This document shows positions 4,117 to 20,198 of a DNA stretch of 32,000 nt, piece after piece; the first letter of the stretch is position 1; every line of letters begins with the position of its first letter. The stretch lies in assembly GCF_000009705.1 (NCBI RefSeq), contig NC_003272.1, positions 360,001 to 392,000 of the forward strand, given 5' to 3'. The notes beneath the pieces are model-generated. The model was given only the letters and a program-made list of their open reading frames with translations, made no database searches and was not told the origin of the DNA. This stretch comes from Nostoc sp. PCC 7120 = FACHB-418 (lineage in GTDB: Bacteria; Cyanobacteriota; Cyanobacteriia; Cyanobacteriales; Nostocaceae). Position numbers and translations under genes: made by a program.

Positions 4117-4259
4117 AAAAAATTCAAAATGAAAAAAACACAGAATATTCAGCCTGATGTGCTGTTAATTGGTAATTGCTCAAAAATTTTACCTATAGCA
4201 TTACTATTTGATTTTTGAGCTATGTGTCAGAGGATCATTGCCAAAAGTATCAGACTGTT

Positions 4260-4276
4260 GGTGGGCATCGCCCACC
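4260..4276 (-). other. GC-rich intercistronic stem-loop between sbpA and cysT.
   Basis: GGTGGGC-ATC-GCCCACC, a 7-bp perfect stem, about 60 nt downstream of the sbpA stop inside a 218-nt intercistronic gap. It is not followed by a U-tract. Confidence 0.45.
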
Positions 4277-4334
4277 ACAAATACTTAAGTATCTATAATC
4301 ATCACATTAAATTCCTCTATTACCCATTACCTAT

Positions 4335-5850: not shown

Positions 5851-8800
5851 TTATCTCGAAGAGATTGGCAGTTTCACAATAAAAGTTGTCTCATCTGTTA
5901 ATGATGACAGACACTCCAAACTTCCTTGATGTTTTTCTACAATCTGGTAACTTATTGATAAACCCAAACCAGTACCTTTACCAACTGGCTTAGTAGTAAA
6001 AAACGGGTCAAATATTTTGCTTATAATATTACTATCTATGCCAATCCCATTATCAGTCACGCGAATAACTGCTTGTTGAGTATCATCTACAATTGTACTA
6101 ATCCGAATTTTTGGACTAAAACTTATTGCTTGACCGTGATATGATTTAGACTTATTTTTTCTTTCTGATAGGGCATCAATAGAGTTAGTAAGCAGATGCA
6201 GGAAAACTTGATTTATTTGACTAGCATCACAGGTAATTTTAGGTAAGTCACCGTATTGTTTGATAATTTCAATATCTGGTAGCCTTTGCTGCAAAATCAT
6301 GAGTGTATTATCGATACCTTCATGAATATCAACTTCTTTAATTGCTGACTCATCTAAGCGTGAGAAGTTACGCAAGGATATAACTATATCACGAATACGT
6401 TCTGCTCCGTTTTTCATCGAAGTGAGCAGCTTGGGCATATCGTCTTTGATAAAGTCTATATCATATTCATCCGCTATTTCCAAAATTGTTTCTTGAGAGT
6501 CTGGGTACTCTGCTTGATAAAAATCGATAATATCTAGTAGGGATTTACTATAATCTTTGATGTGAGTTACATTACCATAAATGAAATTGATAGGATTATT
6601 AATTTCATGAGCTACACCTGCTACTAATTGTCCTAGTGAAGACATTTTTTCATTATGAATTAATTGAGCTTGTGTGCGTTGTAGCTCCCCAAGAATATTT
6701 TGTAGTTGATAATTTTTGTCCTCTAGTTCTTGGGTTCGTTCTTGAACCCGCGCTTCTAATGTTAAATATAACCGCGTATTTTCTAGAGAAATAGCGGCCT
6801 GTGCTGATAAAATTTGTAATACTTCTAGTCTATCCTCAGTAAAAGCATGACTAGTGAGATTATTTTCTAAATATAGAATTCCCGTCAGCTTTCCTTGCGA
6901 AATAATTGGTGATGCAAGTATTGATTTTGGTCGATAATTGATAATATAAGGATCTTTATTGAAATCTTCAGCATGAGACACATCATCCAAAACCAGAGGT
7001 GTCTGAGTTCTTTTTACATAATTAATTACAGACGCTGGTAATACTTGACTATTGGTAATGGGTATAGCTTGTAATGTTGTAATAATGCCTTCCTCTATTA
7101 ATGAGCCTTCAATAACTAAGGTTTCATCTTTTTGAGCGATAAAAAACACCTTCTGCGCCCCTGCATTTTCCTTGGCTAAACACATAAGTTTTTCTAGTAA
7201 TTTTTCTAATACTATTTCGCTACTTAGTGCTTGAGACGCTTTGATTACTGTGGAAATATCTAGAGATAGATTTCTTGTGGAAGTTGTAGCTCCTCTAGTA
7301 AGAGTAATATGTGATTGGATTAGTGTCCCAGTTCTTGTGAGTAAATCAGAATAACGTTTTTCTAAGTCTTTGGCTTTGGCGATCGCCCCCCAACTTATAT
7401 AATTATAATGAGCTTCATCCATATAGCTTTTAGCTAGCTTTGTCCTACCCAATTGTGAGTAAAATATAGCAGCTAGTTCATTAGCGATCGCCATCTCTTG
7501 GATATAACCCTGTTCTTGGGCAAGAATAATAGCACGGTCATAATAATCCATAGCTTGGTATTTTTTGCCCTGAATTTTACATATTTCTGCTTCTACTAAA
7601 TAGAATTTATGTAAAAAATTCATTGGAGCAAATTCCGCCCATTTTCGCATCTTTTCTTGGTTATCTTGTACTTGTGCAAGTATATGTTTTTGACCAGATT
7701 CTGCTTCACAAGGATAAATTGCTAATTGTGTCAGCGAATCATAAAAGTAGAAGATAGGAACCACAAATTGTGCCGTAGCACTACTAATATTTTGAGCCGC
7801 TATACCTGAATGAATCCTGGCTTGCTCATGCTGACCAAATAGATAATTCAGAATAGTTTTGTATAAATGAAAATAGTAAATTCCTAAGTAGTCATTAACA
7901 ATTTCATATTGTGCAAGAAATTCCTGTTCATTATAATTTTCACTCATTAAAGAACAAGCATCTTGAGAGTTATCCATCAAGTTTGAAACAACTTGATAAA
8001 GCATATATTGATGACTCAGTGGCTGTTCTTGTTTTGTTTGACGAATAGCACAGTTAGCATTTTCTATTTTCTGCTTGAGATTATTTAGTTCCTCACCTTG
8101 CCAATATAAAGAACAACACCCAAATTGGTAAAACCATGCTGTATATTCTAAATCTCCACCCTCAAGACTGTATTTTGCTCCCATTTTAGAAAATTGTAGA
8201 GTTTCTCTAAGATGGGTTTTCCAATGAAAAATAAAGTTGCTCACATAAAATAAAATCTTGCCCTTGATAAATGGGCTTAAATCTGCTGTTAAATTTAGTG
8301 CTACTTTGCCTAATTCATAACCTAATTCGCTATCATTAATTACACCGCACAAAATCAGTGCATAAGCTGCATAAGCTATGGGAGAAGAAGCAGAGTTTCC
8401 ATAGAGTAAAGATAATTTTACTCGTGACAAGTTAATCAGCAGCATCAGCTTGGGAGAGACTGAATAAGCAGCAGTGGAAATTGTATCTAAAATTTCCATA
8501 GCAGCCAACGAGTTGACATCAGTCATCTCAGGTAGGTGCAGCAAACCTTGAATGTTATTTCTAGGAATTAAGGAATTAGTTTCTAATAGTACTTGATTAA
8601 CAAAATCATCAGTCGGCTCTTCCGGAAAATCAATTTCTAGCTGATTGAGTAAATTCAAGCCAAGGCTCAAGGCTTCTTGCAACTGTTTTTGAGCTATAGC
8701 TGTTAGAATTTTGAGATTATAAACTTTGATTTTATCTTGTAAGTTATGAGCATTGCCAATCACAACATTTGCTAAATTCTGCATTTTATTAAACTGTCCA

Positions 8801-11277
8801 CAGAGATAAGCTGCTTCTGCTGCTTCTTGGTATAGATTCAAGACAGTTTCGTATTTAGTTAACCATGATGATTCACCTATAAGTTTTATAGCCACCATGA
8901 AATAACTAAGAGCAGGTTCATAGGCCGTTGCTTGTTGTGATTTACGTCCAGCGATTAAATTTAATTCTACGAGTTTATTTTTTTCTGAATCTTCAATAAC
9001 AAGATCAACACTCTTATTGAACTGATTCACAATATCAAAAACATTGCTTTCTATATCTTTGGGTTGCGTATTTTGAAGCAGTAAGCGACCTATTTTGATG
9101 TGAGTATCTTTCTTTTGATTTTGAGGAATTAACGAATATGCAGCTTGTTGTACTCTATCATGTAAAAATTTATAGAGTATTTGTTTACTATCAAATGAAA
9201 TATCATCTTGAGAGTGAAATAGTAGCGGTATACGGTATGTTTCATTTAACGGTAAAATTAGACTAGATTGCAGAGCATCATCAAGCTCATTTGCAGTATC
9301 AAATACTGATTTTTGATTTACTAATGACAGTACATGAAGGTTGAATTTATCGCCAATACAAGCTGCTAGCTGCAATATTTTTTGGGTTTTTTCTGGCAAT
9401 AACTGAATACGACTGGAGACTAATTCAACTACACTCTTATCAGAAACACCAACAGTAATAATTTTCTCAATTTCCCACTGCCATTTCTGTGTAGTAAAAT
9501 CGAATATAAGTAGTGATTCTTGATACAATGCTTTGAGTAGCTGATTGATAAAGAAAGGATTTCCCGCAGTTTTGTTAAAAATGAGTGTAGTTAAAGGATA
9601 GCATCGGGTAGTATTATCATTTAAGGTGTCTTGAACAAAATGAACTACATTAGCTATATCTAACGGTTGTAGCTCAATATTATTAACAACAGTTCCAGAT
9701 TTTTTAATTTCCTCAATAGTGTTAATCAGAGGATGAAGTTTATTAACTTCATTATTACGATATGCTCCAATTATTAGTAAATATTTAATTGTCTGGTCAC
9801 AAATCAAAGACTCCATCAAGTTTAATGTTGCCGAATCTGCCCATTGTAAATCGTCTAAAAATATAACTAATGGATGTTCGCAACAGCAAAAGACTTGAAT
9901 AAATCTTTGAAAAATTTGATTAAATCTATTCTGTGATTCATGAGAACTTAGTTGAGGAATTTCTGGTTGCTTACCAATAATTAATTCGGCTTCTGGGATA
10001 ACATCAATAATGACTTTTCCATTACTACCAACGGCTTGCAGTATGCTGCTGCGCCACATTTCTAGTCTTTCTGTGGATTCTGTTAAAAGTTGGCGCATTA
10101 AGGAAGAAAAAGCTTGAACGAGGGATAAATAAGGTATATCTCGCTTGAACTGATCAAACTTACCACTAATAAAATATCCCTTAACTTGAGTAATGGGCTT
10201 GTTAACTTCATTGATAACGGAAGTTTTACCAATACCGGAGTAACCGGATACTAATGTTAACTCACTGTTACCACGGCTAACTCGTGCGAATGAAAGGAGT
10301 AGTTGTTCAACTTGGGTTTCTCTGCCGTATAACTTTTGGGGAATAATGAGCTGAGAGAAAACATCTAGACGACCTGGAGTAAAATCGGCGATCGCTCCTG
10401 TATGATTAAGCTGTTCTAAACATTGTTCTAAATCAACCAATAATCCCTGTGCAGAGTAGTATCTATCTTCTGCATTTTTAGCCATTAGCTTATGGACGAT
10501 ACCAACAACAGCATTGGGTATGTTTGCTGCTAGCTGCTGTATGGGTGTTGCTTCCTTGGCAATATGAGCGTGTACTAATTCCAAGGGTTCACTGCTGTTA
10601 AACGGTAATTGTCCCGTCAGCATTTCGTAAAGTGTAATTCCCAATGAATAGAAGTCGCTACGGTAATCTAGGTTACGGTTCATCCGTCCTGTTTGTTCTG
10701 GCGACATATAAGCTAGTGTTCCTTCTAGCTGGTTGGGGTTGATAAGTTGTGGCGTTTCCTTTTTTAAACGGGAAGCAATGCTGAAATCAGTGAGTTTAAT
10801 AATTAAGCTAGGCTCTACTTCTGGCGTTTTTTGTAACTCGTTGTCTAAATTTTTAATAATGATATTGCCAGGTTTAATATCTTTATGAATAATTTTATTG
10901 TCGTGAATGTGGACTAAAGCACGGGTGATGGCGATGGCAACTTGGAGAGTTAGCTGCAAAGAAGGCTGATGGGTATAAAGATACTGTTTGAGGCTAATAC
11001 CACCAAAATCTTCAAATACTAGTACTAATCGTTTGTGATGAGTTTCCAAACTGATAACCTTGACAATATTTGGATGGTCAAGGTTAGTAGAGATAGAATA
11101 TTCGTGTTTAAATCTGACAATTGCTTCTAGAGAAAAGTAATTATCTATTAAAACTTTAAGAATCGTGGGAGTGTTACCATCCACTTTTGTAGCGCGGTAG
11201 ATGTTAGTGTTGGTTCCAGAATGGGTAAGTTCTAAAATTCTGTAACCAGAAACTTGAACATTATGGGAAATTACCAC
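5851..11277 (-). CDS. multidomain sensor: Ser/Thr protein kinase - AAA_16-type P-loop NTPase - long helical/TPR-like region - GAF - histidine kinase
   Basis: 1808-aa ORF with a GTG start and AGGAAG upstream.
- Kinase domain: K41 in TILKVL, HKDIKPGN, DFS at aa 164-166, SPE.
- P-loop: GYSGIGKT at aa 345-352, Walker B VIFLDDLQWAD.
- GAF: ILASPIISQGKLTGILYLENN.
- HisKA H-box: GVAHEINNP.
- HATPase boxes: LLTNSIDAL, DNGIGI, GKGTGLGLSIS.
- No receiver domain. Confidence 0.9.
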   Translation of the reverse strand: MVISHNVQVSGYRILELTHSGTNTNIYRATKVDGNTPTILKVLIDNYFSLEAIVRFKHEYSISTNLDHPNIVKVISLETHHKRLVLVFEDFGGISLKQYLYTHQPSLQLTLQVAIAITRALVHIHDNKIIHKDIKPGNIIIKNLDNELQKTPEVEPSLIIKLTDFSIASRLKKETPQLINPNQLEGTLAYMSPEQTGRMNRNLDYRSDFYSLGITLYEMLTGQLPFNSSEPLELVHAHIAKEATPIQQLAANIPNAVVGIVHKLMAKNAEDRYYSAQGLLVDLEQCLEQLNHTGAIADFTPGRLDVFSQLIIPQKLYGRETQVEQLLLSFARVSRGNSELTLVSGYSGIGKTSVINEVNKPITQVKGYFISGKFDQFKRDIPYLSLVQAFSSLMRQLLTESTERLEMWRSSILQAVGSNGKVIIDVIPEAELIIGKQPEIPQLSSHESQNRFNQIFQRFIQVFCCCEHPLVIFLDDLQWADSATLNLMESLICDQTIKYLLIIGAYRNNEVNKLHPLINTIEEIKKSGTVVNNIELQPLDIANVVHFVQDTLNDNTTRCYPLTTLIFNKTAGNPFFINQLLKALYQESLLIFDFTTQKWQWEIEKIITVGVSDKSVVELVSSRIQLLPEKTQKILQLAACIGDKFNLHVLSLVNQKSVFDTANELDDALQSSLILPLNETYRIPLLFHSQDDISFDSKQILYKFLHDRVQQAAYSLIPQNQKKDTHIKIGRLLLQNTQPKDIESNVFDIVNQFNKSVDLVIEDSEKNKLVELNLIAGRKSQQATAYEPALSYFMVAIKLIGESSWLTKYETVLNLYQEAAEAAYLCGQFNKMQNLANVVIGNAHNLQDKIKVYNLKILTAIAQKQLQEALSLGLNLLNQLEIDFPEEPTDDFVNQVLLETNSLIPRNNIQGLLHLPEMTDVNSLAAMEILDTISTAAYSVSPKLMLLINLSRVKLSLLYGNSASSPIAYAAYALILCGVINDSELGYELGKVALNLTADLSPFIKGKILFYVSNFIFHWKTHLRETLQFSKMGAKYSLEGGDLEYTAWFYQFGCCSLYWQGEELNNLKQKIENANCAIRQTKQEQPLSHQYMLYQVVSNLMDNSQDACSLMSENYNEQEFLAQYEIVNDYLGIYYFHLYKTILNYLFGQHEQARIHSGIAAQNISSATAQFVVPIFYFYDSLTQLAIYPCEAESGQKHILAQVQDNQEKMRKWAEFAPMNFLHKFYLVEAEICKIQGKKYQAMDYYDRAIILAQEQGYIQEMAIANELAAIFYSQLGRTKLAKSYMDEAHYNYISWGAIAKAKDLEKRYSDLLTRTGTLIQSHITLTRGATTSTRNLSLDISTVIKASQALSSEIVLEKLLEKLMCLAKENAGAQKVFFIAQKDETLVIEGSLIEEGIITTLQAIPITNSQVLPASVINYVKRTQTPLVLDDVSHAEDFNKDPYIINYRPKSILASPIISQGKLTGILYLENNLTSHAFTEDRLEVLQILSAQAAISLENTRLYLTLEARVQERTQELEDKNYQLQNILGELQRTQAQLIHNEKMSSLGQLVAGVAHEINNPINFIYGNVTHIKDYSKSLLDIIDFYQAEYPDSQETILEIADEYDIDFIKDDMPKLLTSMKNGAERIRDIVISLRNFSRLDESAIKEVDIHEGIDNTLMILQQRLPDIEIIKQYGDLPKITCDASQINQVFLHLLTNSIDALSERKNKSKSYHGQAISFSPKIRISTIVDDTQQAVIRVTDNGIGIDSNIISKIFDPFFTTKPVGKGTGLGLSISYQIVEKHQGSLECLSSLTDETTFIVKLPISSR

Positions 11278-11355
11278 GGTCTTCTTCCTAGATTCAAATT
11301 ACTGTTATGCTTAAGCTGCTCTTGCTTTAACTTGCACGTCTTTTCGCATTGGATA

Positions 11356-11394
11356 TTGACATTTGACGGTTGGCTGTCAACCGTCAAATGTCAA
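11356..11394. repeat. 39-bp perfect palindrome (17-bp arms, 5-nt loop) in the spacer between the flavoprotein gene and the giant kinase gene.
   Basis: TTGACATTTGACGGTTG (11356-11372), loop GCTGT, CAACCGTCAAATGTCAA (11378-11394). An A6 run follows on the + strand. It lies 79 nt upstream of the kinase GTG. Confidence 0.6.
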
Positions 11395-11489
11395 AAAACC
11401 ATACAAGTGACTATGTAATTTAAAAGCGTAATAGCTTATCCTCAATGAGTTTTGAGAAATTAATCTCTAATGCTCAATAATGATTTAAT

Positions 11490-11602
11490 GCAATGTACAA
11501 CGTTATCTCAAATCTAACCCCTAACTTCTTCCCTTGTAGGTCTTGTGTCAACCCCGAAAAGCAAGCTATGGAAACAGATTTTAAAAATAAGTTGTACATT
11601 GC
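11490..11602. mobile_element. Candidate MITE-like element, 113 bp, with 12-bp perfect terminal inverted repeats.
   Basis: GCAATGTACAAC (11490-11501) and GTTGTACATTGC (11591-11602). The flanks are TTAAT and CTAAT. It has no coding capacity and sits in a 400-bp spacer. Confidence 0.3.
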
Positions 11603-11683
11603 CTAATTTAGGATTGCTATATATCTAGGGTTCCCATTAATTTCAGTTACTAACAAACTTACAGCAGATTCAGGATAACCCTA

Positions 11684-13027
11684 CTAGCTCAGAACATGGC
11701 TCGGATCATACTGTTGTTTCATAGTTTCCCAAGTCTTATAACTGGTACCATAATGCTGTCGCCAATCAAAATTTGATTTGCCAAGCCAACCGGAGAGATA
11801 GCGTTTTCCTCCTGCACGAAGAAGTAGTTGATTAACTTTTTCTAACACGTCAAAAGTTTTGGTATCTTCAACGGGAACAGCCATAGGGAGAATTGCAAAA
11901 CAAAGGATATTTTTGGCTGGTGGCATCATAAATAGGTTAGGTAGGTTATCAGGTGCAACCATGATGGCTCTGTGTCCATCGCCCAAGCTTAGTGGTAACA
12001 TATCAAGAATTTCTGGCAAAACTTCTGCCAAAGCTTCAGCACTAATGAAACATTCTATCCAAGGGTGAGCTTGGTTCCATGCACCACTTGTCCGCATGAC
12101 TTCAAATCGGGGTTGGTAGCGAAAAACATGGCTCACGGTTTCTTCATCTTCTGTATGGAAAAGCCGCCAGTAATTTAAGTCGTGTAATACATCACTTGCC
12201 GATGGTGCTACCTCATCATACTCAATACCAACTTGCAATCCATAAAGCCAATGGGCGAAGAATTTTTTACCACTAGTAGTGTGACGAATACCTTTAGCCG
12301 AAGTCCAACAAAATCCTTCCAAATGTTCTATTTGGTGATTTCTACCTAAAAATATATGGTCATCCATCCAGGGTTTCAGGGAATCATAAAGTAGATGAAA
12401 AGTCCGAATGTATTTTTTAGTTTTCCGTAGTGCTAATGTGGCGCTGGCAATAACACCACATCCTCCTAAACCACCTAAAACTGCATGGTATAGTTCTGGT
12501 GTTTGTGTGCGGCTACATTGGATATATTCACCATTCCCCGTGATGATATGCAAATCAATTACATTGGCAACGACGGGACCATAAGTTTTGGAAGTGCTGC
12601 CAATACCGCCTGTGGAAAGCAATCCTCCTACTGTTTGTTCCAAGTTGAGGGGGAGAACACAGGGAAGCATACCGTATTTCACAGTTGTGGTAACTATATC
12701 TTGCCATGTTGCTCCAGCTTCAGTGGCGATCGCCTGCGCTACGGTATCTACTTTAGATACATGGTTTAGTCGCGTTAGGTCAAGGGTGAAAGCATCTTGA
12801 GCCACAGACTGTCCGCCTTGAGTGTAACCTTTACCACGAGCTTTGAGTCGTAAATTTTGCTGTTTGGCAAATCGTAGTGCTGAACTGAGTTCCTCAAGAT
12901 TGTGAGGTCGGATAATACCAAGGGTATTACCTTTAATTAGACTGCCGAAGTCAGTAATAACGCTCGATATAACACTCTGATCCTGGATTACATTTACCAC
13001 TGGAGAATTGTTTTTTGGTTTACTCAT
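11684..13027 (-). CDS. FAD-linked oxidase (PCMH type), cytokinin-dehydrogenase-like
   Basis: 447 aa. The N-terminal FAD_binding_4-like region contains IIRPHNLEELSSALRFAKQQNLRLKARGKGYTQGGQS and VGGLLSTGGIGS. The C-terminal half contains HPWIECFIS and GGKRYLSGW...W.QHYG..YKTWETMKQQYDP, resembling plant CKX. The start lies 10 nt after the methyltransferase stop. Confidence 0.75.
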   Translation of the reverse strand: MSKPKNNSPVVNVIQDQSVISSVITDFGSLIKGNTLGIIRPHNLEELSSALRFAKQQNLRLKARGKGYTQGGQSVAQDAFTLDLTRLNHVSKVDTVAQAIATEAGATWQDIVTTTVKYGMLPCVLPLNLEQTVGGLLSTGGIGSTSKTYGPVVANVIDLHIITGNGEYIQCSRTQTPELYHAVLGGLGGCGVIASATLALRKTKKYIRTFHLLYDSLKPWMDDHIFLGRNHQIEHLEGFCWTSAKGIRHTTSGKKFFAHWLYGLQVGIEYDEVAPSASDVLHDLNYWRLFHTEDEETVSHVFRYQPRFEVMRTSGAWNQAHPWIECFISAEALAEVLPEILDMLPLSLGDGHRAIMVAPDNLPNLFMMPPAKNILCFAILPMAVPVEDTKTFDVLEKVNQLLLRAGGKRYLSGWLGKSNFDWRQHYGTSYKTWETMKQQYDPSHVLS

Positions 13028-13037
13028 GGTAGATGTA

Positions 13038-13772
13038 TTAGTGGCGTTTAATTACTGCCCAAAATGCTGGTGGTGTTGCGTAGTTGCCATCAGGTAGTTT
13101 ATGAATACTTTGGAATAAGCTTTCACCTTGACTGAGAATTTCAAAATCTGGAAAATATAATTCAATATCTTCTGTCGTGAAAATCCCTGGTCGAATGCCA
13201 TGTTCCATGACTAAAGATAGTTCGTATGGTAATTTTCCATACTTTTCCAAGAGTGAGTTAAAGAATTCAATACAGCCAGTACCTAATTCAATTAAATACA
13301 TTACTCCTTGTTTACCAAGAAGTGTGCGTAAAGATTGAGCAAGTAATTCCCTTTTTTCTACGGGAATGTGGTGAAATCCTGTTCTCATATAAATATTAGC
13401 ATCACCGATTTCCGAATGTATTTGTGCGGCTTGTTCGGGTACTAAACCATCAAGAAGGCGATATGAAATGTTTGCAGCCGTGTTTTCCTTGGAGGCCATT
13501 TCCAGAGCAGTCTTAGAGACATCAAATCCGATAACTCTAGGGAAAAATTGGGAGAGAAATTTAGTTTGTGTACCATTACCACAAGCGAAATCAATGAGTG
13601 GTAATTCGGTATCAAAGAATGATTGAAAACGAGGTAAATCAACGACTACAGCTCTTTCCACATTAGCATCCCACAAAACTGGAGTGGCATTAACTAAAGT
13701 TTTGTTCCAATATTGCTCCCAAGCTTCAGCAACGTTAATGTCAGGTTTTTCTCTAGCACTTAGCTTTTCCAT
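13038..13772 (-). CDS. class I SAM-dependent methyltransferase
   Basis: 244 aa with motif I LIDFACGNGTQT, post-I VIGFDVS and a Rossmann-like layout. AAGAGGA lies 5 nt upstream of the ATG. Confidence 0.8.
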   Translation of the reverse strand: MEKLSAREKPDINVAEAWEQYWNKTLVNATPVLWDANVERAVVVDLPRFQSFFDTELPLIDFACGNGTQTKFLSQFFPRVIGFDVSKTALEMASKENTAANISYRLLDGLVPEQAAQIHSEIGDANIYMRTGFHHIPVEKRELLAQSLRTLLGKQGVMYLIELGTGCIEFFNSLLEKYGKLPYELSLVMEHGIRPGIFTTEDIELYFPDFEILSQGESLFQSIHKLPDGNYATPPAFWAVIKRH

Positions 13773-13826
13773 AAGTCCTCTTAGTTTTTTAATTTGTTGT
13801 TTTTACGCTCTACAAAGTGGCGACCG

Positions 13827-14501
13827 TCAATATTTTGGGGAAGGATATAAAGCGGCGGCTAGCCCGTCAAACATAAGATCAAAAGCTTCATATATACGAT
13901 CAATCATCTTGAAATGGTATATTCTTTGATCATGATTCAACTGTATATTTCCGATTAAATCCTGCATTCCTATCTCGAAAATCTCATGTTCTTTTTCAAC
14001 GCCAAGATGATGACTTGAGAAGTATTTAAGACAGGTGTTACAATTATTTTTTTCGATAAAGTCTGTAACACATTCAAAAAAAACGTGACCTGCTGATTCT
14101 AGTGCGAGTATTAAAGTTATTCTTTCATAGTCATTGTTAGCACGAAAGACTTCTGACATCAGTGAAAATGTTGCATCACGTACAGGAGCATGAGATTTAC
14201 TGTAGAGAACCTGCAAATTTGGCTGTTCTGCATTTAACATTTTCAAGTCATATAAGAACCATTTTTCATGACCGATATCTTCCATGAGGTGTTTTTTGAC
14301 AAATTCATAGTACTCTTCATCGGTAATGAATGATAGATTCATTCTCAATAAATCTTGAAAAGACATCACCCAAAAGCCAATATTAGAAGCCATTCTGGCA
14401 AAGTCTTCTAATTTAGATTCACCCACTTTTAAACCCTGAAATAAACTGTGTTCAATTAACAGTTTTTGTTTGAATTCCAGATATTCTTGTATGGCTTTCA
14501 T
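13827..14501 (-). CDS. hypothetical all-helical protein; candidate heme-oxygenase-like di-iron oxidase (HDO / PqqC-TenA-CADD superfamily)
   Basis: 224 aa. Ligand-like motifs are MEDIGHEKW (E74/D75, H78), LALESAGH (E135, H139) and HHLGVEKEHE (H165-x3-E169-x2-H172). The last matches the H-x3-(D/E)-x2-H helix remembered from CADD/UndA-type enzymes. It is the first gene of a tight three-gene unit. Confidence 0.5.
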   Translation of the reverse strand: MKAIQEYLEFKQKLLIEHSLFQGLKVGESKLEDFARMASNIGFWVMSFQDLLRMNLSFITDEEYYEFVKKHLMEDIGHEKWFLYDLKMLNAEQPNLQVLYSKSHAPVRDATFSLMSEVFRANNDYERITLILALESAGHVFFECVTDFIEKNNCNTCLKYFSSHHLGVEKEHEIFEIGMQDLIGNIQLNHDQRIYHFKMIDRIYEAFDLMFDGLAAALYPSPKY

Positions 14502-14981
14502 GGTGTTTTTATGATTACCTACTTGAATACAAGATAGCTTTCTTTACAATTAGCAATCATGAGTGGTAACACCGAGCTTTAAAAGAAAAATTATCTGATT
14601 TTTTTAAAAAAAAATTACTATTAAATTAGTATGCACGTAGTACTTACTTAGGTAATGACTACAGTGCCTTTGTAAAACTTTTACTAATATTTAAATCAAT
14701 AATCTGGACTGGATACAGGGAAATAAAATCATGATTATTGTGCTATTTTTTATACTCTTGAAATTTGAACAGATTAGTTGATGAAAGAATAGTTAATGAT
14801 TGGGTATGGGCTGATAATATAAGCCCACACATATAATCGATGTATTCATGATTGATTTATTTCCGAAATTAAGGAGATGCTGAGGTATAGTGGTTAATTG
14901 TTATTTATTCTGTCTTGGTCAGCATAAATTTATACTTTGATTTAACGGTATCAAAGAATCAATGTGTAATTAATAAGATGC

Positions 14982-15761
14982 CTAATTGAATATATGCCTT
15001 AATGGTAAACCGTCCTGAAAGACTAACAGTTCTCCTGGTTGAATTGGTGTCCAAACTTCGTTATCTGTGAGCGGCGTAGTGGCAATAACAGCGACGCGAT
15101 CGCTTGGTGTTGTCAATTCATTAAAATCTACTGTCATATCCTGATCAATCAGGTGTGCGGCCGCAAAAGGCGCTTGACGTACTATGTAACTGAGGTTTGT
15201 GGAACAGTGCGTAAAGAAATGTTCTCCATCGGATAGTAGATAGTTGAAAACACCGATTGCAGCTAATCTTTCTGTAACTCGTTGCAGTACAGGGTACAGT
15301 TTTTCTAGGGAGGGTTTACCTTCGGGAAAACTTTGCCGCAGTGTTTCTAATATCAAGCAGAATGCTTTCTCACTGTCAGTATGACCGACAGCTTGATAAA
15401 AATCTTGAATTGGTGGTTGAAAGTCAGGCAAATTACCATTGTGAGCAAACACCCAATATCTTCCCCAAAGTTCTCGGCGAAAAGGATGGCAGTTTTCTAA
15501 AGCGACTTCACCTTGGGTTGCTTTGCGAATATGGGCGATGACATGGGTAGAGTGGATGGGATAGCATCGCACAAAATCTGCTATCGGAGAATCTATAGAG
15601 GGTTTAGCATCTAAAAATATTCGACATCCCTTTCCTTCAAAAAAAGCAATTCCCCAACCATCACTGTGATTATCTGTTTTTCCTCCCCGTGCAGAAAATC
15701 CTTCAAAGGAAAAACAGATATCCGTTGGCACATTGCAATTCATTCCCAGTAGTTGACACAT
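14982..15761 (-). CDS. class II (Ntn) glutamine amidotransferase, YafJ-type
   Basis: 259 aa. It starts M-C (Cys2 nucleophile) and contains MCQLLGMNCNVPTDICFSF...HSDGWGIAFFEG and FAHNGNL. Confidence 0.85.
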   Translation of the reverse strand: MCQLLGMNCNVPTDICFSFEGFSARGGKTDNHSDGWGIAFFEGKGCRIFLDAKPSIDSPIADFVRCYPIHSTHVIAHIRKATQGEVALENCHPFRRELWGRYWVFAHNGNLPDFQPPIQDFYQAVGHTDSEKAFCLILETLRQSFPEGKPSLEKLYPVLQRVTERLAAIGVFNYLLSDGEHFFTHCSTNLSYIVRQAPFAAAHLIDQDMTVDFNELTTPSDRVAVIATTPLTDNEVWTPIQPGELLVFQDGLPLRHIFN

Positions 15762-15958: not shown

Positions 15959-17473
15959 CTACCGTAAACAGCGAATCGCCAAGAGAAGTCCTCTAGCTTT
16001 ATTTAAAGTTTCCTCATATTCTTTCTCTGGCTCAGAATCAGCCACCAAACCCGCACCAGCTTGCACTGTTACGGTTTGATCTCTGACTACCATCGTCCGA
16101 ATAGCGATCGCACTATTTAATTGTCCTTCAAAATCATAATATCCATACACCCCAGAATACACACCCCGGCGGCTGGGTTCTAACTCATTAATAATTTCCA
16201 TCGCCCTAATTTTCGGTGCGCCGCTAACTGTGCCGGCGGGAAAACAGGCTTTTAATAAATCCCAGGCGTTTTTATTTGCGGCTAATTTCCCCACAACATT
16301 ACTCACAATGTGCATTACATGAGAGTAGCGTTCCACCACCATTAATTCATCAACTTTTACAGTCCCACTGGCACAAACACGGCCTAAATCGTTGCGTCCT
16401 AAATCCACCAGCATGACGTGTTCAGCGATTTCTTTGGGGTCTTGGAGTAAATCTGCGGCTAATTCTGCATCTTCTTTGGTTGTCTTACCCCGTGGACGAG
16501 TCCCGGCAATAGGACGAACTGTGGCTATTGCTTCACCATCTGCATCCAGTTCCGCTTTCACCATCACTTCAGGACTAGAACCGATGATTTGCCAGTCTTG
16601 GAAGTTAAAGTACGCCATGTAAGGCGAGGGATTTATCTGACGCAGGGAACGGTACAGGGAGAAGGGATCGCCGGTGTATTGGGTAGAAAGGCGTTGAGAA
16701 ATAACTACTTGAAAGATATCACCCGCTTTGATGTACTCTTTGGCTTTTTGGACACTGGCGCAAAATTCCGGTCGAGTGAAGTTGCTGGTATATTCTTGTA
16801 TTTCCCCCACTTTTTGGCTGCCTGGGGGTGTCCATTCTAATATGGTTTTTTGGGGCGATAGGGGCAAGGATAGTTTGCTCACCATTTGGGTGACGCGATC
16901 GCACGCTTGCTGATACGCCGCTTTTAAATCTACATTTGGATCACGTAAATCAGCATAGGCGATCGCCCATATTTTCCGCTTTACCTGGTCAAATATTAAC
17001 AAATGGTCTACCTGCATCCACAATCCATCAGGAATGTTGCGCTCATCTTGGGGATGCACTGGTACACGCGGTTCAATCCAGCGAATTAATTCATAACCCC
17101 AAAAACCAAACAAACCGCCAATTCCTGGTGGTAGTTGGGGTAACTTGACTGGTTTATACGGTGCTAGGCAATCGGCTAGAGCTGTAAATGGATCGCCTGT
17201 AAATACAACTTGGGAGCCATCACGGTTTGTCTGAGTGGTCGTCTCACCCCTAGCTTCCAAAACCCATAAAGGATCACACCCCAGTAAACTATAACGCCCA
17301 ATCTTTTCCCCACCTTCTACCGATTCCAGCAAAAAGCTATAAGGCTCTCCAGCGCAAACTTTGTACCAAGCGGAAACAGGTGTATCTAGGTCTGCCACCC
17401 ATTCCTGATACACCGGCACAAAATTACCTTGCAAAGCTAGCTGAGAAAATTCGGAGAAATTGGGGAAAATCAT
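15959..17473 (-). CDS. trpE: anthranilate synthase component I
   Basis: Motifs LLESVEGGEKIGRYS, FPAGTVSGAPKIRAMEII and GAGLVADSEPEKEYEETLNKA. The track ORF begins at a TTG (17479). I trimmed it to the ATG at 17473 (MIFPNFSEFSQLA), which is typical of cyanobacterial TrpE N-termini. Confidence 0.9.
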   Translation of the reverse strand: MIFPNFSEFSQLALQGNFVPVYQEWVADLDTPVSAWYKVCAGEPYSFLLESVEGGEKIGRYSLLGCDPLWVLEARGETTTQTNRDGSQVVFTGDPFTALADCLAPYKPVKLPQLPPGIGGLFGFWGYELIRWIEPRVPVHPQDERNIPDGLWMQVDHLLIFDQVKRKIWAIAYADLRDPNVDLKAAYQQACDRVTQMVSKLSLPLSPQKTILEWTPPGSQKVGEIQEYTSNFTRPEFCASVQKAKEYIKAGDIFQVVISQRLSTQYTGDPFSLYRSLRQINPSPYMAYFNFQDWQIIGSSPEVMVKAELDADGEAIATVRPIAGTRPRGKTTKEDAELAADLLQDPKEIAEHVMLVDLGRNDLGRVCASGTVKVDELMVVERYSHVMHIVSNVVGKLAANKNAWDLLKACFPAGTVSGAPKIRAMEIINELEPSRRGVYSGVYGYYDFEGQLNSAIAIRTMVVRDQTVTVQAGAGLVADSEPEKEYEETLNKARGLLLAIRCLR

Positions 17474-17482
17474 CGGCAATTT

Positions 17483-18132: not shown

Positions 18133-18174
18133 TGGTCAACAGTCAACAGTCAACAGTCAACAATTAACAGTCCA
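18133..18174. repeat. STRR2/STRR3 heptamer array (TTGGTCA, ACAGTCA x3, ACAATTA, ACAGTCC) upstream of psaD.
   Basis: Six consecutive heptamers read directly. CAACAGT is the STRR3 unit. The array sits between the histidine-kinase stop (18186) and the psaD start (18041). Confidence 0.9.
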
Positions 18175-18185
18175 AAAGCTAATGA

Positions 18186-20198
18186 CTACCGACTTTTAAC
18201 TTTTGACCAACTTTCCTCTTGACTATTTTGAGCGACGGGAATGGTGAAATGAAATTGGCTACCTTGGTCTTTACCTGTGGAAGCTGCCCAAATTGCACCG
18301 CCCCAACCGTTGACGATTTGGCGGCAAATTGCTAAACCTAGCCCTGTACCGCCTGCTGTGCGGCGTAATGCCCCTTCTTCTTGGTAGAAACGGTCAAAAA
18401 CTATTTCTAAACGATTTGGCTCTATACCCCGTCCCGTATCGGCTACGGTGACTTCTACCATTTGACTACCATTGTGAGTGGCACTAATCTTGATCTCCCC
18501 TTGTGTTGGTGTGAATTTACAAGCGTTGTCTACGAGTTTTGCCAACACTTCTACTAGCCAATCACCGTCTGCTCTGACTAAGGGTAAGTTTCCGTCTATT
18601 TGGGTTTTAATCGCTGGCGGTTTCTCTACTCCAGGACGGATGCGGAGACGACTAAGGGCTAAATCAATACATTCTTGTAGGGTTAAGGATTCTGGATGCC
18701 ATTCCACTCGACCGCTTTCTAAATTAGAAAGAGTCAAGAAATCCTGCACTAGTTTTCGCATCCGTTCCGAGTCTGACAAAGCAGTATTTAGCATTACCTG
18801 TTGCAATTCCACGGGCATATCGGGTTCGGTAGCCAAACTTTCTAAGCACACTTGAATTGTTGATAAAGGTGTGCGGAGTTCATGCCCAGTGATAGCTATC
18901 AGGTTGCTGCGGGTACGGTCTAGAGCTTCTAATTGCTGGTTGAGTTCTTCTAGGTTGGCGTAAGCTTCTGCTTGAATTAAGGCGGCTCCAATTTGGGTGG
19001 CGATCGCTTCTACTAAGTCCAATTCTCCTGGCTGCCATTGGTGGGGCGGAAGGGAGCAATAATGCAGTTCTACAATACCTAATAATCTCCCTTGAAATAC
19101 AACTGGTTCGATTAACCACGAACGAATCGCCAGTTTTTTGGCAATCAAGGACAATGTGGGAGAATTTGTAATCCGAAAGTCATTTAAGGTATCGGTGACA
19201 CAAACACCTTCGCCATGATCTACCACTTCTTTAAACAGGGAATTGTTCTTTAATTCCCTGGTTTGACCGCTAATGGAGACCGTACCAGGAGTTAAAAATT
19301 CATGTTCGATCACCGCCTGGGCATCACTGGCTTGGGCGCGATAAATTAGACAACGACTAGCTCCTAAATGTTGTCCTAGTTCTTGAGCAGCAATTTGTAA
19401 TACTTGGTGCGGATCAAGCGATCGCCGAATTGCTGTACTAATTGAGTTGACTAAACGTTCTTTTCGTGCTTGAGCCGCAATTGAACGGTAAGCTTTATGT
19501 AATTTATACTGACTAGCTTGCAGGTAGGTAACTAAGCGCTGCACAAAGGGATCAGTATCAATATCACAAGCATATTCAGTTACAAAACTACTAGCATTGG
19601 AGTAAATTTTCGTTTCACCAATGCCGAATCGCTGACAAGCTTTTGTCACTTTTTTTGCCAAGTCTGGTCGATAAACCAAAATTCTATCTAGTAGCAATTG
19701 GGCAGCTTTGATACTTACTCCCCGTTCAGATGTCCAAATACCTTCAAAGCGTCGCCCTGCATCCATATCAAGGCCAGGACTAAACTCTGGTATTTGTCGA
19801 TTTTTGGCGATCGAACCCAGGCTTTCTCTACATACCAAGCAAGTAGCATAATTGTCAGCTACTACGACCAAATGCCACTCTTGACTCAAAGCATCATCAG
19901 GCTCAAATGCTACCTTTTCGTAGTATTCCGAGCTATTGGCAAAATCAGTTTCCGGTGCAGATAGAACGTATATTTGACTACTACGTTGTGCCAATCGCTG
20001 ATAGCGATGAGCTTCTTGGCGATAGAATCTCTCTCTTTGAAAGCTAGCAATTACTAAAGGCTGGTCTAAAGTCGCAGCCAACACCTGATCTTCCATCGCG
20101 TGGGAAAGGGCCGTCAATGAAGCTTTGAAATATAGCTGAGGCCGCAGGTAAGGTAGGGACTGTAGCAGATCACTCAGCACGGAAGTTGAAATGCTCAT
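18186..20198 (-). CDS. soluble sensor histidine kinase: N-terminal sensory region (possibly DICT-type) - GAF - HisKA - HATPase
   Basis: 670 aa with an ATG start and no obvious TM helices.
- GAF-like: GRLLGIVELHY.
- H-box: ITGHELRTPLSTI.
- N box: LAKLVDNACKF.
- G1: DTGRGI.
- G2: GGTGLGLAICRQIV.
- The DICT assignment of aa 1-230 is from memory only. Confidence 0.85.
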   Translation of the reverse strand: MSISTSVLSDLLQSLPYLRPQLYFKASLTALSHAMEDQVLAATLDQPLVIASFQRERFYRQEAHRYQRLAQRSSQIYVLSAPETDFANSSEYYEKVAFEPDDALSQEWHLVVVADNYATCLVCRESLGSIAKNRQIPEFSPGLDMDAGRRFEGIWTSERGVSIKAAQLLLDRILVYRPDLAKKVTKACQRFGIGETKIYSNASSFVTEYACDIDTDPFVQRLVTYLQASQYKLHKAYRSIAAQARKERLVNSISTAIRRSLDPHQVLQIAAQELGQHLGASRCLIYRAQASDAQAVIEHEFLTPGTVSISGQTRELKNNSLFKEVVDHGEGVCVTDTLNDFRITNSPTLSLIAKKLAIRSWLIEPVVFQGRLLGIVELHYCSLPPHQWQPGELDLVEAIATQIGAALIQAEAYANLEELNQQLEALDRTRSNLIAITGHELRTPLSTIQVCLESLATEPDMPVELQQVMLNTALSDSERMRKLVQDFLTLSNLESGRVEWHPESLTLQECIDLALSRLRIRPGVEKPPAIKTQIDGNLPLVRADGDWLVEVLAKLVDNACKFTPTQGEIKISATHNGSQMVEVTVADTGRGIEPNRLEIVFDRFYQEEGALRRTAGGTGLGLAICRQIVNGWGGAIWAASTGKDQGSQFHFTIPVAQNSQEESWSKVKSR

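Follow-up and report, generated by a model that had tools for sequence, protein, structure and literature searches.

Organization of the locus

The window, i.e. the entire stretch of 32,000 nucleotides of Nostoc sp. PCC 7120 DNA analyzed here, harbors three closely spaced genes on the reverse strand (gene 1, gene 2 and gene 3), followed downstream by the gene of a giant kinase. The following features were located:

5851-11277, reverse strand: giant Pkinase-AAA_16-GAF-HisKA-HATPase_c protein (Pfam domains) of the HstK / cbSTKIII type
11356-11394, unstranded: perfect palindrome of 39 bp (17+5+17) in the 406-nt spacer between kinase and gene 3
11620-11656, reverse strand: conserved non-coding motif TTGTTAGTAACTGAAATTAATGGGAAYCCTAGA just 3' of the gene 3 stop codon, seen in gene 3-kinase spacers of seven loci
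11684-13027, reverse strand: gene 3, predicted CKX-like flavoprotein, 447 aa
13038-13772, reverse strand: gene 2, predicted SAM methyltransferase, 244 aa
13827-14501, reverse strand: gene 1, candidate heme-oxygenase-like diiron oxidase (HDO), 224 aa
14502-14684, reverse strand: conserved proximal leader of gene 1, from a leader alignment of the window, L001, L081, L083, L088, L002 and L091
14685-14932, reverse strand: AT-rich leader insertion of about 250 nt, window-specific, absent from L001, L081 and L083

A preliminary description of this DNA had listed the same three open reading frames, and their coordinates, strand and lengths matched exactly; gaps of 54 nt (gene 1/gene 2) and 10 nt (gene 2/gene 3) were also reproduced. 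Gene 2 is preceded by a Shine-Dalgarno-like GAGGA sequence, and its distance to gene 3 varies between 10 and 362 nt in related loci. Promoter and terminator scans of the cassette region were uninformative, the leader containing no more promoter-like matches than shuffled sequence. The three genes may be co-transcribed. The view that they form a functional small-molecule tailoring unit, already expressed in the preliminary description, is supported by the present data.

Upstream of gene 1, the region 14502-14981 is indeed AT-rich and ORF-free (GC content 0.28, no ORF of at least 60 aa). The 480-bp leader described before thus exists, but only about 230 nt are conserved; roughly 14685-14932 is a strain-specific insertion, and the leaders of L001, L081 and L083 comprise 231-233 nt. 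Two motifs in the conserved part, CGGTGTTACCACTCATG at 14554-14574 and AAAGCTATCTTGTATTCAAGTAGGTAA at 14513-14541, recur 5' of gene 1 orthologs in other contexts. An Rfam family search of the leader gave no match. The segment 14502-14684 might serve the cassette as promoter or 5'-UTR.

Spacers between gene 3 and the kinase were aligned from seven loci, among them Scytonema (L087), Nostoc NIES-3756 (L091) and L088. TTGTTAGTAACTGAAATTAATGGGAAYCCTAGA and a conserved pre-kinase motif at 11278-11302 are the sole remnants of this spacer in other genera, and TTGTTAGTAACTGAAATTAATGGGAAYCCTAGA might be a regulatory element that connects the cassette with the kinase. The 39-bp palindrome reported earlier is present and perfect, but not conserved: it lies within an insertion (about 11330-11432) that L001, L081 and L083 lack. 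It consists of degenerate TTGACNG heptamers, resembling in this the tandem repeat at 18137-18160, and is a strain-specific STRR-like heptamer element. The palindrome is window-specific and missing from the closest relatives, and it is no conserved terminator or operator.

Inheritance of the cassette with the kinase

The protein all0323 has been classed as cbSTKIII with GAF and HisKA domains (PMC2176072). Kinase orthologs (71-92% identity) immediately follow the cassette in L001, L081-84, L087, L088, L091 and L002; furthermore, a 49% ortholog is found in the rearranged locus L089, and in L092 and L093 43% paralogs are convergent to a variant cassette. Upstream of the block gene 1, gene 2, gene 3, kinase, three different contexts were seen, namely trpE/GATase (window, L001, L081), a response regulator (L088) and TamB (L091). 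Hence, cassette and downstream giant Ser/Thr-His kinase are inherited as a unit in Nostocales. This result contradicts the earlier picture of an insulated unit bounded by the kinase: the kinase ortholog follows the cassette in every Nostocales version while the upstream context differs, and it is a conserved partner of the block. A functional link between cassette and kinase is possible, with the kinase perhaps serving as sensor or regulator.

Gene 1 is a candidate HDO of the AetD type

A Pfam profile search of gene 1 gave zero matches, including none to the expected family Haem_oxygenas_2; its assignment is based on PDB sequence and fold searches. AetD was detected by phmmer (E 6e-6, about 23% identity). 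An AF2 model of the 224-aa protein (pLDDT 87, pTM 0.86) adopted the heme-oxygenase-like fold, and Foldseek returned AetD as best match (TMq 0.83, E 4e-5), CADD as second-best (TMt 0.74-0.76), and then UndA and BesC. AetD, the aetokthonotoxin nitrile synthase, and SktA, the skatole synthase, are HDOs that act on halogenated L-tryptophan and share 39% identity with each other.

The iron ligands of AetD (D76, H79, E140, H172, E176, H179) and its substrate contacts (Y167, F44, F48), as given in the AetD paper, align to the predicted ligands D75, H78, E135, H165, E169 and H172 and to Y160, W44 and F48 of gene 1. Of 84 homologs, 82-84 keep these residues. Y160 is the predicted binding residue for the substrate carboxylate, and aromatic stacking is predicted for W44/F48. 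The motif residues named in the preliminary description (E74/D75, H78, E135, H139, H165, E169, H172) are real and invariant or nearly so in homologs; according to the AetD alignment, however, it is D75 and not E74 that supplies the carboxylate ligand of helix 1, and H139 falls outside the six ligands. The proposed di-iron candidate is thus supported and, judged from the model, would belong to the AetD type in particular (TM-score 0.78-0.83, 3-His/3-carboxylate ligand positions conserved), constituting a sister family to AetD/SktA. At several pocket positions where AetD is hydrophobic, gene 1 has conserved polar residues (Q49, E117, H139, S162); its substrate may therefore differ substantially from Trp.

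The gene 1 family comprises 627 representative clusters and, in contrast to AetD/SktA, extends well outside cyanobacteria, to Legionella and myxobacteria. Close orthologs of about 65% identity stand alone in some Nostoc genomes, so an HDO lacking its partners may either still function or be in decay.

Gene 2 is a predicted methyltransferase

Gene 2 contains motif I (DFACGNGTQ) and passes the Pfam cut-offs of Methyltransf_25 and Methyltransf_11, in agreement with its earlier designation as a SAM methyltransferase. It can be classified from sequence as a class I SAM-dependent methyltransferase and Nostocales-specific tailoring enzyme of the cassette. The best-matching structure, PDB 3ggd (E 3e-151, about 90% identity over the full length), is an ortholog from Anabaena variabilis which was deposited by structural genomics without assigned function or genomic context; the context described here places it in an HDO cassette. 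'CyaF' (9k2f) matched with E 4e-24. Gene 2 is situated between HDO and flavoprotein in L001, L081-84, L088 and L091, and precedes gene 3 in L087.

Gene 3 is a CKX-like flavoprotein lacking the catalytic Asp

Gene 3 passes the Pfam cut-offs of FAD_binding_4 and Cytokin-bind and matches plant CKX structures with E 2e-40. These searches agree with the earlier reading as a PCMH-type flavoprotein with a cytokinin-dehydrogenase-like C-terminal half; by sequence, gene 3 belongs to the PCMH/VAO type and to a 'P-L-N-L' clade. With CKX from plants and Rhodococcus fascians (FasE) it shares this domain architecture and the HPW and H-(F/Y)-G motifs, and HPW, H425 and Y410 of the substrate domain are strictly conserved in the clade. 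It differs from true CKX in that Y68, L127 and Y426 replace His, Asp and Phe, i.e. the covalent-FAD His is a Tyr and the catalytic Asp a Leu. Asp127 was absent in all gene 3 homologs in which it was sought (54/54 and 117/117).

Gene 3 is the ortholog of NoCKX1 from Nostoc sp. PCC 7120, with Y68, L127, Y410 and Y426 identical to the published residues. NoCKX1 was inactive as CKX in vitro, in Nostoc extracts and in tobacco, with every cytokinin and electron acceptor tried; Y68H/L127D/Y426F mutants were inactive too, tobacco expressing NoCKX1 showed no phenotype, and the protein expressed in E. coli bound no FAD (PMC4574047). The JGI label 'cytokinin dehydrogenase' on many homologs is thus wrong for gene 3.

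An HDO-flavoprotein pair is conserved across bacteria

The flavoprotein adjoins the HDO in 55 of 80 HDO-centred loci, and an HDO adjoins the flavoprotein in all six flavoprotein-centred loci with sufficient flank. This adjacency spans 7 of 15 HDO subclades (below 50% identity) and was seen in Nostocales, Legionellales, alphaproteobacteria and delta/myxobacteria, with nearly all Legionella carrying the pair. Gene orders and orientations vary (L064, L022, L089, L096). In myxobacteria both proteins are fused into a single polypeptide (HDO+CKX-like: P0309, P0323, P0397), to which a tryptophan prenyltransferase (Trp_DMAT) can also be fused (DMAT+HDO+CKX-like: P0341, P0383). In Legionella the pair is accompanied by kynurenine 3-monooxygenase (KMO; E 5e-83 to KMO structures), located directly 5' of the HDO in 48 loci.

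The full triad was found only within Nostocales. The conserved core is the HDO + CKX-like flavoprotein pair, not the triad, and the gene 2 methyltransferase is one tailoring partner among several that can replace each other. Additionally, AetD/SktA-type HDOs stand in for gene 1 in other cyanobacteria. HDOs 35-38% identical to AetD adjoin gene 3 orthologs in L089 (60%) and L090 (39%), and gene 2 orthologs (55-58%) in L092 and L093, there together with an FMO. Gene 3 is a putative FAD enzyme and the dedicated partner of the gene 1 HDO family.

Proposed pathway and alternatives

We consider it somewhat better than an even chance that the cassette is a compact oxidative tailoring pathway for an aromatic alpha-amino acid, most probably Trp or a Trp derivative, in which gene 3 is the FAD partner of the HDO. 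A Trp-derived substrate is suggested because the nearest characterized relatives, AetD and SktA, use ring-substituted Trp, because gene 2 and gene 3 orthologs adjoin AetD-like HDOs, and because of the Trp_DMAT fusions and the KMO genes described above. With an amino acid as substrate, a scaffold synthase would be unnecessary.

For substrate identity, reaction outcome and order of steps we infer the following. By analogy with AetD/SktA, the amino and carboxylate groups of the substrate would chelate Fe1 of gene 1, Y160 keeping the carboxylate in place while W44/F48 stack against the ring. Once bound, the substrate would set off O2 activation by the diferrous centre, with fragmentation or rearrangement of the alanyl side chain as the outcome. 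Gene 3 would probably dehydrogenate the substrate or product of the HDO; a chemically reasonable possibility is that it dehydrogenates a 3-alkylindole-type product at a benzylic position or as a vinylogous amine, much as PCMH/VAO enzymes act on p-cresol. Gene 2 would add a methyl group, filling a 'ring or side-chain tailoring' slot that may elsewhere be taken by a halogenase (aet, skt clusters), a DMATS prenyltransferase (myxobacteria) or KMO (Legionella). Domain and sequence searches of the window revealed no KMO, DMATS or halogenase.

The skt cluster carries the halogenase SktB and the flavin monooxygenase SktC beside SktA. Both it and the present locus are small cyanobacterial cassettes that combine an HDO with a ring-tailoring enzyme and a flavoprotein; the present cassette differs from aet/skt by the lack of a halogenase and by a CKX-like VAO-family flavoprotein in place of the FMO.

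Instead of catalysing a second step on the metabolite, gene 3 might be a redox partner that takes electrons from some donor and re-reduces the diferric cluster of the HDO after each turnover. HDOs depend on an external reductant (ascorbate in vitro), obligate pairing and fusion are typical of oxygenase-reductase pairs, and NoCKX1 was inactive on the substrates tried. However, proteins of the VAO/PCMH/CKX fold are substrate dehydrogenases or oxidases, Pfam revealed no NAD(P)H-binding domain in gene 3, and HPW, H425 and Y410 are strictly conserved. Moreover, an FMO-type monooxygenase fills the slot in L092 and L093, as SktC does in the skt cluster, which points to a chemical step on the metabolite. 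We regard the redox role as unlikely.

Much less credit is given to the idea that gene 1 makes p-aminobenzoate in the self-sacrificing manner of CADD, or has some other role in chorismate, anthranilate or folate metabolism. This idea draws on the structural match to CADD, on trpE two genes upstream of the cassette in the window, and on HDO homologs whose neighbours include a fused PabB-like protein and a fused anthranilate synthase (L017, L027). AetD, however, is closer by sequence and structure, and its substrate-binding Tyr and aromatic residues are conserved. CADD (the Chlamydia pABA synthase), UndA and BesC share with gene 1 the seven-helix HDO fold and the ligand motif, but their structural similarity is lower and their substrates are a self-sacrificed Tyr, fatty acids and chloro-lysine, respectively; none of them is known to have a flavoprotein partner. 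The conserved partners are flavoprotein, KMO and DMATS, and no folate genes. The trpE/GATase context is absent in L088, L091 and L002, where gene 2, gene 3 and kinase are retained; since it is not kept in L088 and L091, the trpE adjacency is probably coincidental.

Degradation or modification of cytokinins or other N-alkylated purines or amines, with gene 3 as cytokinin dehydrogenase, is highly improbable. The Cytokin-bind and plant CKX matches, the JGI names and a canonical GHS/TDYL CKX-type domain beside the prenyltransferase in P0383 would fit it. The N-alkyl-amine/purine turnover proposed in the preliminary description is nevertheless contradicted by the clade-wide loss of the catalytic Asp, by the lack of the covalent His in gene 3, and by the inactivity of NoCKX1 and its mutants. 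Furthermore, the genomic partners of gene 3 (AetD-like HDO, KMO, DMATS) have no purine link, and include neither isopentenyltransferase nor LOG.

That the three genes are mere neighbours without shared function, their tight spacing being incidental, deserves equally little credence: confinement of the triad to Nostocales could reflect shared ancestry, spacers vary and some gene 1 orthologs are solitary, but HDO-flavoprotein adjacency recurs in distant phyla in varied orders, orientations and covalent fusions, and the block with the kinase is intact in three genomic contexts.

The proposed tailoring pathway for a Trp-derived amino acid can be compared with the early ergot-alkaloid pathway, which employs DmaW (DMATS), EasF (N-methyltransferase), EasE (FAD-linked VAO/BBE-type oxidase) and EasC (O2-activating decarboxylating enzyme). 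EasC is a catalase unrelated in sequence to HDOs and the window is devoid of DMATS; the analogy is one of pathway logic alone. The same inventory of Trp enzyme types is found in the prenyltransferase (fused to the HDO in myxobacteria), the gene 2 methyltransferase, the FAD_binding_4 oxidase predicted for gene 3 and the candidate O2-dependent metalloenzyme gene 1.

Organization of the cassette

Genes 1 to 3 lie on the same strand with gaps of 54 nt and 10 nt, and all coordinates in the preliminary description matched. The genes are listed below together with the large kinase gene downstream of the cassette.

13827-14501, (-) strand: gene 1, candidate heme-oxygenase-like diiron oxidase/oxygenase (HDO), 224 aa
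13038-13772, (-) strand: gene 2, putative SAM methyltransferase, 244 aa
11684-13027, (-) strand: gene 3, flavoprotein resembling cytokinin dehydrogenase (CKX), 447 aa
5851-11277, (-) strand: Pkinase-AAA_16-GAF-HisKA-HATPase_c kinase, 1808 aa

The cassette is preceded by 480 nt of AT-rich DNA (GC 0.28) without an ORF. A promoter and terminator scan gave matches no better than those in shuffled controls and neither supported nor opposed an operon. The GC content is 0.34 in gene 1, 0.38 in gene 2, and 0.35 in the kinase gene, as compared to 0.47 in trpE (15959-17479) and an average of 0.41 in the window; these low values are consistent with an accessory block. The trpE/GATase_4 genes were rejected as members of the system because this context is gone in three related loci from other genomes (L088, L091, L002).

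Gene 1 resembles the diiron oxidase AetD

An AlphaFold2 model of gene 1 based on 18 homologs was all-helical (pLDDT 87, pTM 0.86). A Foldseek search with this model returned AetD, an HDO acting on halogenated tryptophan, in first place (TM 0.78-0.83), followed by CADD, UndA, TenA, and BesC; the top 19 matches at E ≤ 1e-3 were HDOs throughout (AetD, CADD, UndA). Furthermore, AetD was the only significant match of gene 1 among PDB sequences (phmmer, E 6e-6). The AetD structure paper describes D76, H79, E140, H172, E176, and H179 as iron ligands, Y167 as contact to the substrate carboxylate, and F44/F48 as stacking residues. In the phmmer alignment, the ligands correspond to D75 and H78 (helix 1), E135 (helix 2), and H165, E169, and H172 (helix 3) of gene 1, and the substrate contacts to Y160, W44, and F48; all of these residues are kept in 82-84 of 84 family members. 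Gene 1 therefore combines, by model and alignment, the HDO fold with a set of three His and three carboxylate ligands over core helices 1-3. It also shows the anchoring of the AetD/SktA type, with a carboxylate-binding Tyr and an aromatic pair on auxiliary helix 2, and lacks an additional Glu ligand to Fe1. The residue motifs quoted earlier are present, and the proposal of a heme-oxygenase-like diiron enzyme is upheld on these grounds and can be narrowed to the AetD kind.

The Haem_oxygenas_2 domain (PF14518), which had been expected, was not detected in gene 1 at E ≤ 1, and the Pfam and NCBIfam profile libraries yielded nothing usable for this protein. Among its homologs, P0397 scored 32.0 bits with Haem_oxygenas_2 (cut-off 28.9 bits) and the others 22.8-28.8 bits, at or below the cut-off. 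Identity to AetD is about 23% for gene 1, well short of the 39% reported for SktA, the second characterized HDO acting on halogenated tryptophan; the HDOs of loci L089, L090, L092, and L093 reach 35-38%. Additionally, Q49, E117, H139, and S162 of gene 1 are polar and conserved, and the corresponding positions of AetD are hydrophobic. The low identity and the conserved polar positions place gene 1 in a sister family outside the AetD/SktA cluster itself. Clustering at 50% identity divides this family into 627 clusters, 190 of which matched at E ≤ 1e-30. The literature searched describes only about a dozen characterized HDOs and gives all AetD homologs besides SktA as functionally uncharacterized. 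Gene 1 represents a new subfamily of several hundred sequence clusters in a superfamily with few characterized enzymes.

Gene 3 belongs to a CKX-like clade lacking the catalytic Asp

Gene 3 matched FAD_binding_4 (E 1e-30) and Cytokin-bind (E 8e-14), each above the cut-off, which confirmed the predicted domains, and it matched plant CKX structures at E 2e-40. Its residues Y68, L127, Y410, and Y426 are exactly those published for NoCKX1, the ortholog from Nostoc sp. PCC 7120. NoCKX1 was inactive as a CKX whether studied in vitro, in cell extracts, or in tobacco, and its back-mutated versions were inactive as well (PMC4574047). The catalytic Asp of CKX (D169 of ZmCKX1) is L127 in gene 3 and was found in 0 of 54 HDO-linked and 0 of 117 database homologs; Leu occupies the position in 91 of these 117, forming a P-L-N-L motif that also occurs in fused domains. 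The His carrying covalent FAD in the GHS motif is Y68 in gene 3, and only 15 of 117 clade members retain the His. As the clade shows no variation in the FAD-loop glycines, HPW, Y410, and H425, a flavin-dependent function is still likely. Many of these proteins are automatically annotated as "cytokinin dehydrogenase", a label that is probably wrong for the clade. The likeness to cytokinin dehydrogenase noted earlier therefore probably does not extend to function, as catalytic Asp and covalent-FAD His are missing and the ortholog is inactive. A clade without the Asp that works with a diiron oxidase would explain why NoCKX1 and many bacterial "CKX" proteins lack CKX activity. One domain, that of the fusion protein P0383, is of the canonical CKX type (GHS, TDYL), unlike those of other fusions.

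HDO and flavoprotein are coupled across bacteria

A scan with one genome per species yielded 146 stretches encoding relatives of gene 1, of which 80 were kept. A gene 3 homolog adjoins the HDO gene in 55 of these 80 loci, covering 7 of 15 HDO subclades (<50% mutual identity). The pair occurs in Nostocales, in essentially all sampled Legionella species, in alphaproteobacteria (L040; L080, Reyranella), in a deltaproteobacterial MAG (L016), and in a myxobacterium, there on opposite strands (L022). The reverse search gave the same picture: an HDO lies alongside in all six flavoprotein-centered loci with enough flanking sequence (L088, L089, L090, L094, L095, L096). Moreover, both are joined in single chains in Myxococcota (P0309, P0323, P0397), and P0341 and P0383 from the same phylum have a tryptophan dimethylallyltransferase domain as a third part. 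At least 550 aa were found in 25 of the best 149 representative proteins, and as eight of eight scanned were such fusions, the remaining long proteins are probably fusions as well. Adjacency across lineages in both search directions, together with the fusions, argues strongly, and independently of shared ancestry, for a joint function of HDO and flavoprotein. Fusions of an HDO with the CKX-like flavoprotein and/or the prenyltransferase were also seen in Myxococcota in P0303, P0326, and P0325 and in loci L094 and L095.

The linkage is frequent, not universal: no gene 3 homolog was present within 10 kb of the Nostoc HDO homologs of L006-L014 (44-47% identity) and of several myxobacterial HDOs.

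Gene 2 encodes a methyltransferase found in the Nostocales version

The assignment of gene 2 as a SAM methyltransferase held: motif I (DFACGNGTQ) is present, and Methyltransf_25 scored 36.7 bits (cut-off 27). By sequence, gene 2 is classed as a class I SAM-dependent methyltransferase. It is an ortholog of the solved structure 3ggd, a structural genomics entry without function, which gains a functional context from the cassette; nothing was found in the literature on the identity of "CyaF" (PDB 9k2f), the one further relative with a solved structure. Gene 2 orthologs stand between HDO and flavoprotein genes in Nostocales only (the window, L001, L081-84, L088, L091, L087). These include Trichormus (L081-84), Nostoc NIES-3756 (L091), a Nostoc locus with an extra short-chain dehydrogenase gene (L088), and Scytonema (L087), where the locus ends at the contig end. 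The expectation that the three genes are co-conserved was thus borne out by half, because the two-gene core of HDO and flavoprotein is kept across phyla but the full triad is restricted to Nostocales.

Partner enzymes point to tryptophan-derived substrates

In 48 loci, a gene for kynurenine 3-monooxygenase (KMO; E 5e-83 to the rat, human, and Pseudomonas KMO structures) lies directly upstream of the HDO gene on the same strand. Myxobacterial HDOs occur as fusions with a Trp_DMAT prenyltransferase. In further cyanobacteria, orthologs of gene 3 in L089 (60%) and L090 (39%) and of gene 2 in L092 and L093 (55-58%) adjoin HDOs 35-38% identical to AetD, a level comparable to SktA; L092 and L093 carry an FMO-type flavoprotein in place of the CKX-like one, comparable to SktC. 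One design recurs, in which an enzyme that tailors the ring or the side chain (a halogenase, a prenyltransferase, KMO, or a methyltransferase) is combined with an HDO and a flavoprotein, and all identifiable partners act on tryptophan or its catabolite kynurenine. We therefore infer that the substrate of the cassette is a tryptophan-derived amino acid.

The gene order in Legionella is PAS-GGDEF-EAL protein, KMO, AetD-like HDO, and CKX-like flavoprotein (L020-L080), for example in L. pneumophila subsp. fraseri (L073, about 8430-12060). This reveals a near genus-wide operon KMO-HDO-flavoprotein beside a c-di-GMP enzyme. A convergent gene for a Methyltransf_2-type O-methyltransferase often follows downstream (27 loci). 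In Vasconcelosia minhoensis (L027, 10796-14882), the genes after an HDO homolog encode a ScyD/ScyE-family protein and a fused anthranilate synthase, an arrangement reminiscent of scytonemin-type tryptophan chemistry.

By analogy with AetD, the gene 1 product would bind an aromatic amino acid by chelation to Fe1, activate O2, and then fragment or rearrange the alanyl side chain; gene 2 would methylate and gene 3 dehydrogenate the substrate or the product. We consider this scheme as a whole probable, if only by a little. Alternatively, the flavoprotein could serve as an electron-transfer partner of the HDO; this seems rather improbable to us. Cytokinin turnover, suggested by the Cytokin-bind domain, has little probability left in view of the missing catalytic Asp and the inactive NoCKX1. 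The same applies to a CADD-like pABA role, given that CADD ranks behind AetD in the structural search, and to mere adjacency of the genes, which the fusions contradict. The remaining probability is assigned to explanations not named here.

Trp, prenyl-Trp, and 3-hydroxykynurenine as candidate substrates, together with a flavoprotein partner, make the chemistry of this HDO subfamily directly testable. SktA converts 5-bromo-Trp to bromoskatole, cyanide, and CO2. Since AetD makes a nitrile and SktA skatole plus cyanide, it is plausible that the subfamily performs new C-C or C-N chemistry and that its products include new bioactive or volatile indoles.

The enzyme families themselves are known, and the combination of HDO, flavoprotein, and tailoring enzyme has precedents in the aet and skt clusters. 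In the literature searched, we found no link between HDOs and cytokinin dehydrogenase, and no description of the HDO sister family, of its coupling or fusion with an Asp-less CKX-like flavoprotein, of the reassignment of NoCKX1, of the KMO-linked operon of Legionella, or of the association with signaling proteins.

Sensor proteins accompany the module

The preliminary description had treated the kinase gene as a boundary of an insulated unit, a view that has to be abandoned: a kinase ortholog (71-92%) directly follows the cassette in every Nostocales version. It is kept even where other, unrelated genes lie upstream (for a response regulator in L088, for TamB in L091), and in L002 it stands beside the HDO gene though only 49 aa remain of gene 2 and gene 3 is lost. 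A 49% ortholog follows a rearranged cassette in L089, and 43% paralogs lie opposite the variant cassettes of L092 and L093. Altogether, the kinase travels with the cassette in L001, L002, L081-84, L087, L088, L089, L091, L092, and L093. The window kinase unites Pkinase, GAF, HisKA, and HATPase_c in one chain, as is characteristic of the dual Ser/Thr-His kinases of the HstK/cbSTKIII type. In proteobacteria, a PAS-GGDEF-EAL protein often adjoins the module (44 loci, plus L040 and L096).

The repeated closeness of the module to sensor proteins is an observation; a functional link between them is speculation. HDO and Asp-less flavoprotein might together make a small, diffusible indole- or aminophenyl-type signal from amino acids of the tryptophan/kynurenine type, to be sensed by the protein encoded next to them, a reading we regard as unlikely. 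If true, the receptor would be the GAF Ser/Thr-His kinase in Nostocales and the PAS-GGDEF-EAL c-di-GMP enzyme in Legionella and other proteobacteria, and the cassette would then pair a signal synthase with its receptor instead of being a secondary-metabolite cluster.

By synteny and gene numbering, the cassette would be all0326-all0324 and the kinase gene all0323 of strain PCC 7120. The window kinase would then, on the basis of synteny, be the ortholog of all0323, which is listed as cbSTKIII, a class III Ser/Thr kinase of the GAF/HisKA type (PMC2176072). In a strain overexpressing furC/perR, all0323 was reported to be turned on (capped at 650-fold), its promoter showing no direct FurC binding, and a HetR ChIP-seq peak was reported upstream of all0326, a "low coverage" gene. 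Nothing on co-regulation of all0324-all0326 with all0323 was found in the supplementary tables of the FurC papers, and as regards the cassette we treat these FurC and HetR findings as leads only.

The variant cassette of Rivularia-type cyanobacteria (L092, 4273-7735; L093, 4486-7735) consists of an AetD/SktA-type HDO, an FMO-like flavoprotein, and a gene 2-like methyltransferase, and it faces a giant kinase built like that of the window, together with a response regulator. A second sensor kinase gene is present in the window beyond psaD (18186-20198, (-) strand; DICT-CHASE6-GAF-HisKA-HATPase_c), and an ABC-transporter set lies beyond the giant kinase (2385-5480, (-) strand; solute-binding protein and two permeases); neither accompanies the cassette in its other contexts.

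Intergenic elements

The 480-nt leader exists as described, but about 250 nt of it (roughly 14685-14932) are an insertion specific to the window. Near gene 1, at 14513-14574, the motifs CGGTGTTACCACTCATG and AAAGCTATCTTGTATTCAAGTAGGTAA also occur upstream of gene 1 orthologs with other upstream genes (L088, L002, partly L091); they gave no Rfam match, and an Rfam scan of 11100-15100 revealed no credible RNA family.

Likewise, the palindrome reported for the downstream spacer is real, a perfect 17+5+17 at 11356-11394 within 406 nt, but it lies within an insertion missing from the closest relatives. It is composed of degenerate TTGACNG heptamers, comparable to the tandem repeat at 18137-18160. 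Because of this make-up, resembling an STRR-type heptamer element, and its lack in the closest relatives, a role as terminator or operator was dropped. Tandem TTGACTG heptamers, which we take to be STRR-like repeats of heterocystous cyanobacteria, occur in intergenic spacers at 18137-18160 and 11356-11394 of the window, at 11583-11599 of L001, and elsewhere. The palindrome and the differing distances between gene 2 and gene 3 in relatives (10, 53, about 150, and 362 nt) apparently go back to such repeats. In the Nostoc locus L088 (6029-6981), a 40-aa copy of the gene 2 C-terminus lies after the short-chain dehydrogenase gene that separates gene 2 from gene 3; this copy is the footprint of the insertion event.

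The short spacers between gene 3 and the kinase gene in other genera (112-202 nt) consist essentially of two motifs, found in the window at 11620-11656 and 11278-11302. Both have been kept as far as Scytonema, and the roughly 300 nt between them occur in the window's clade only.
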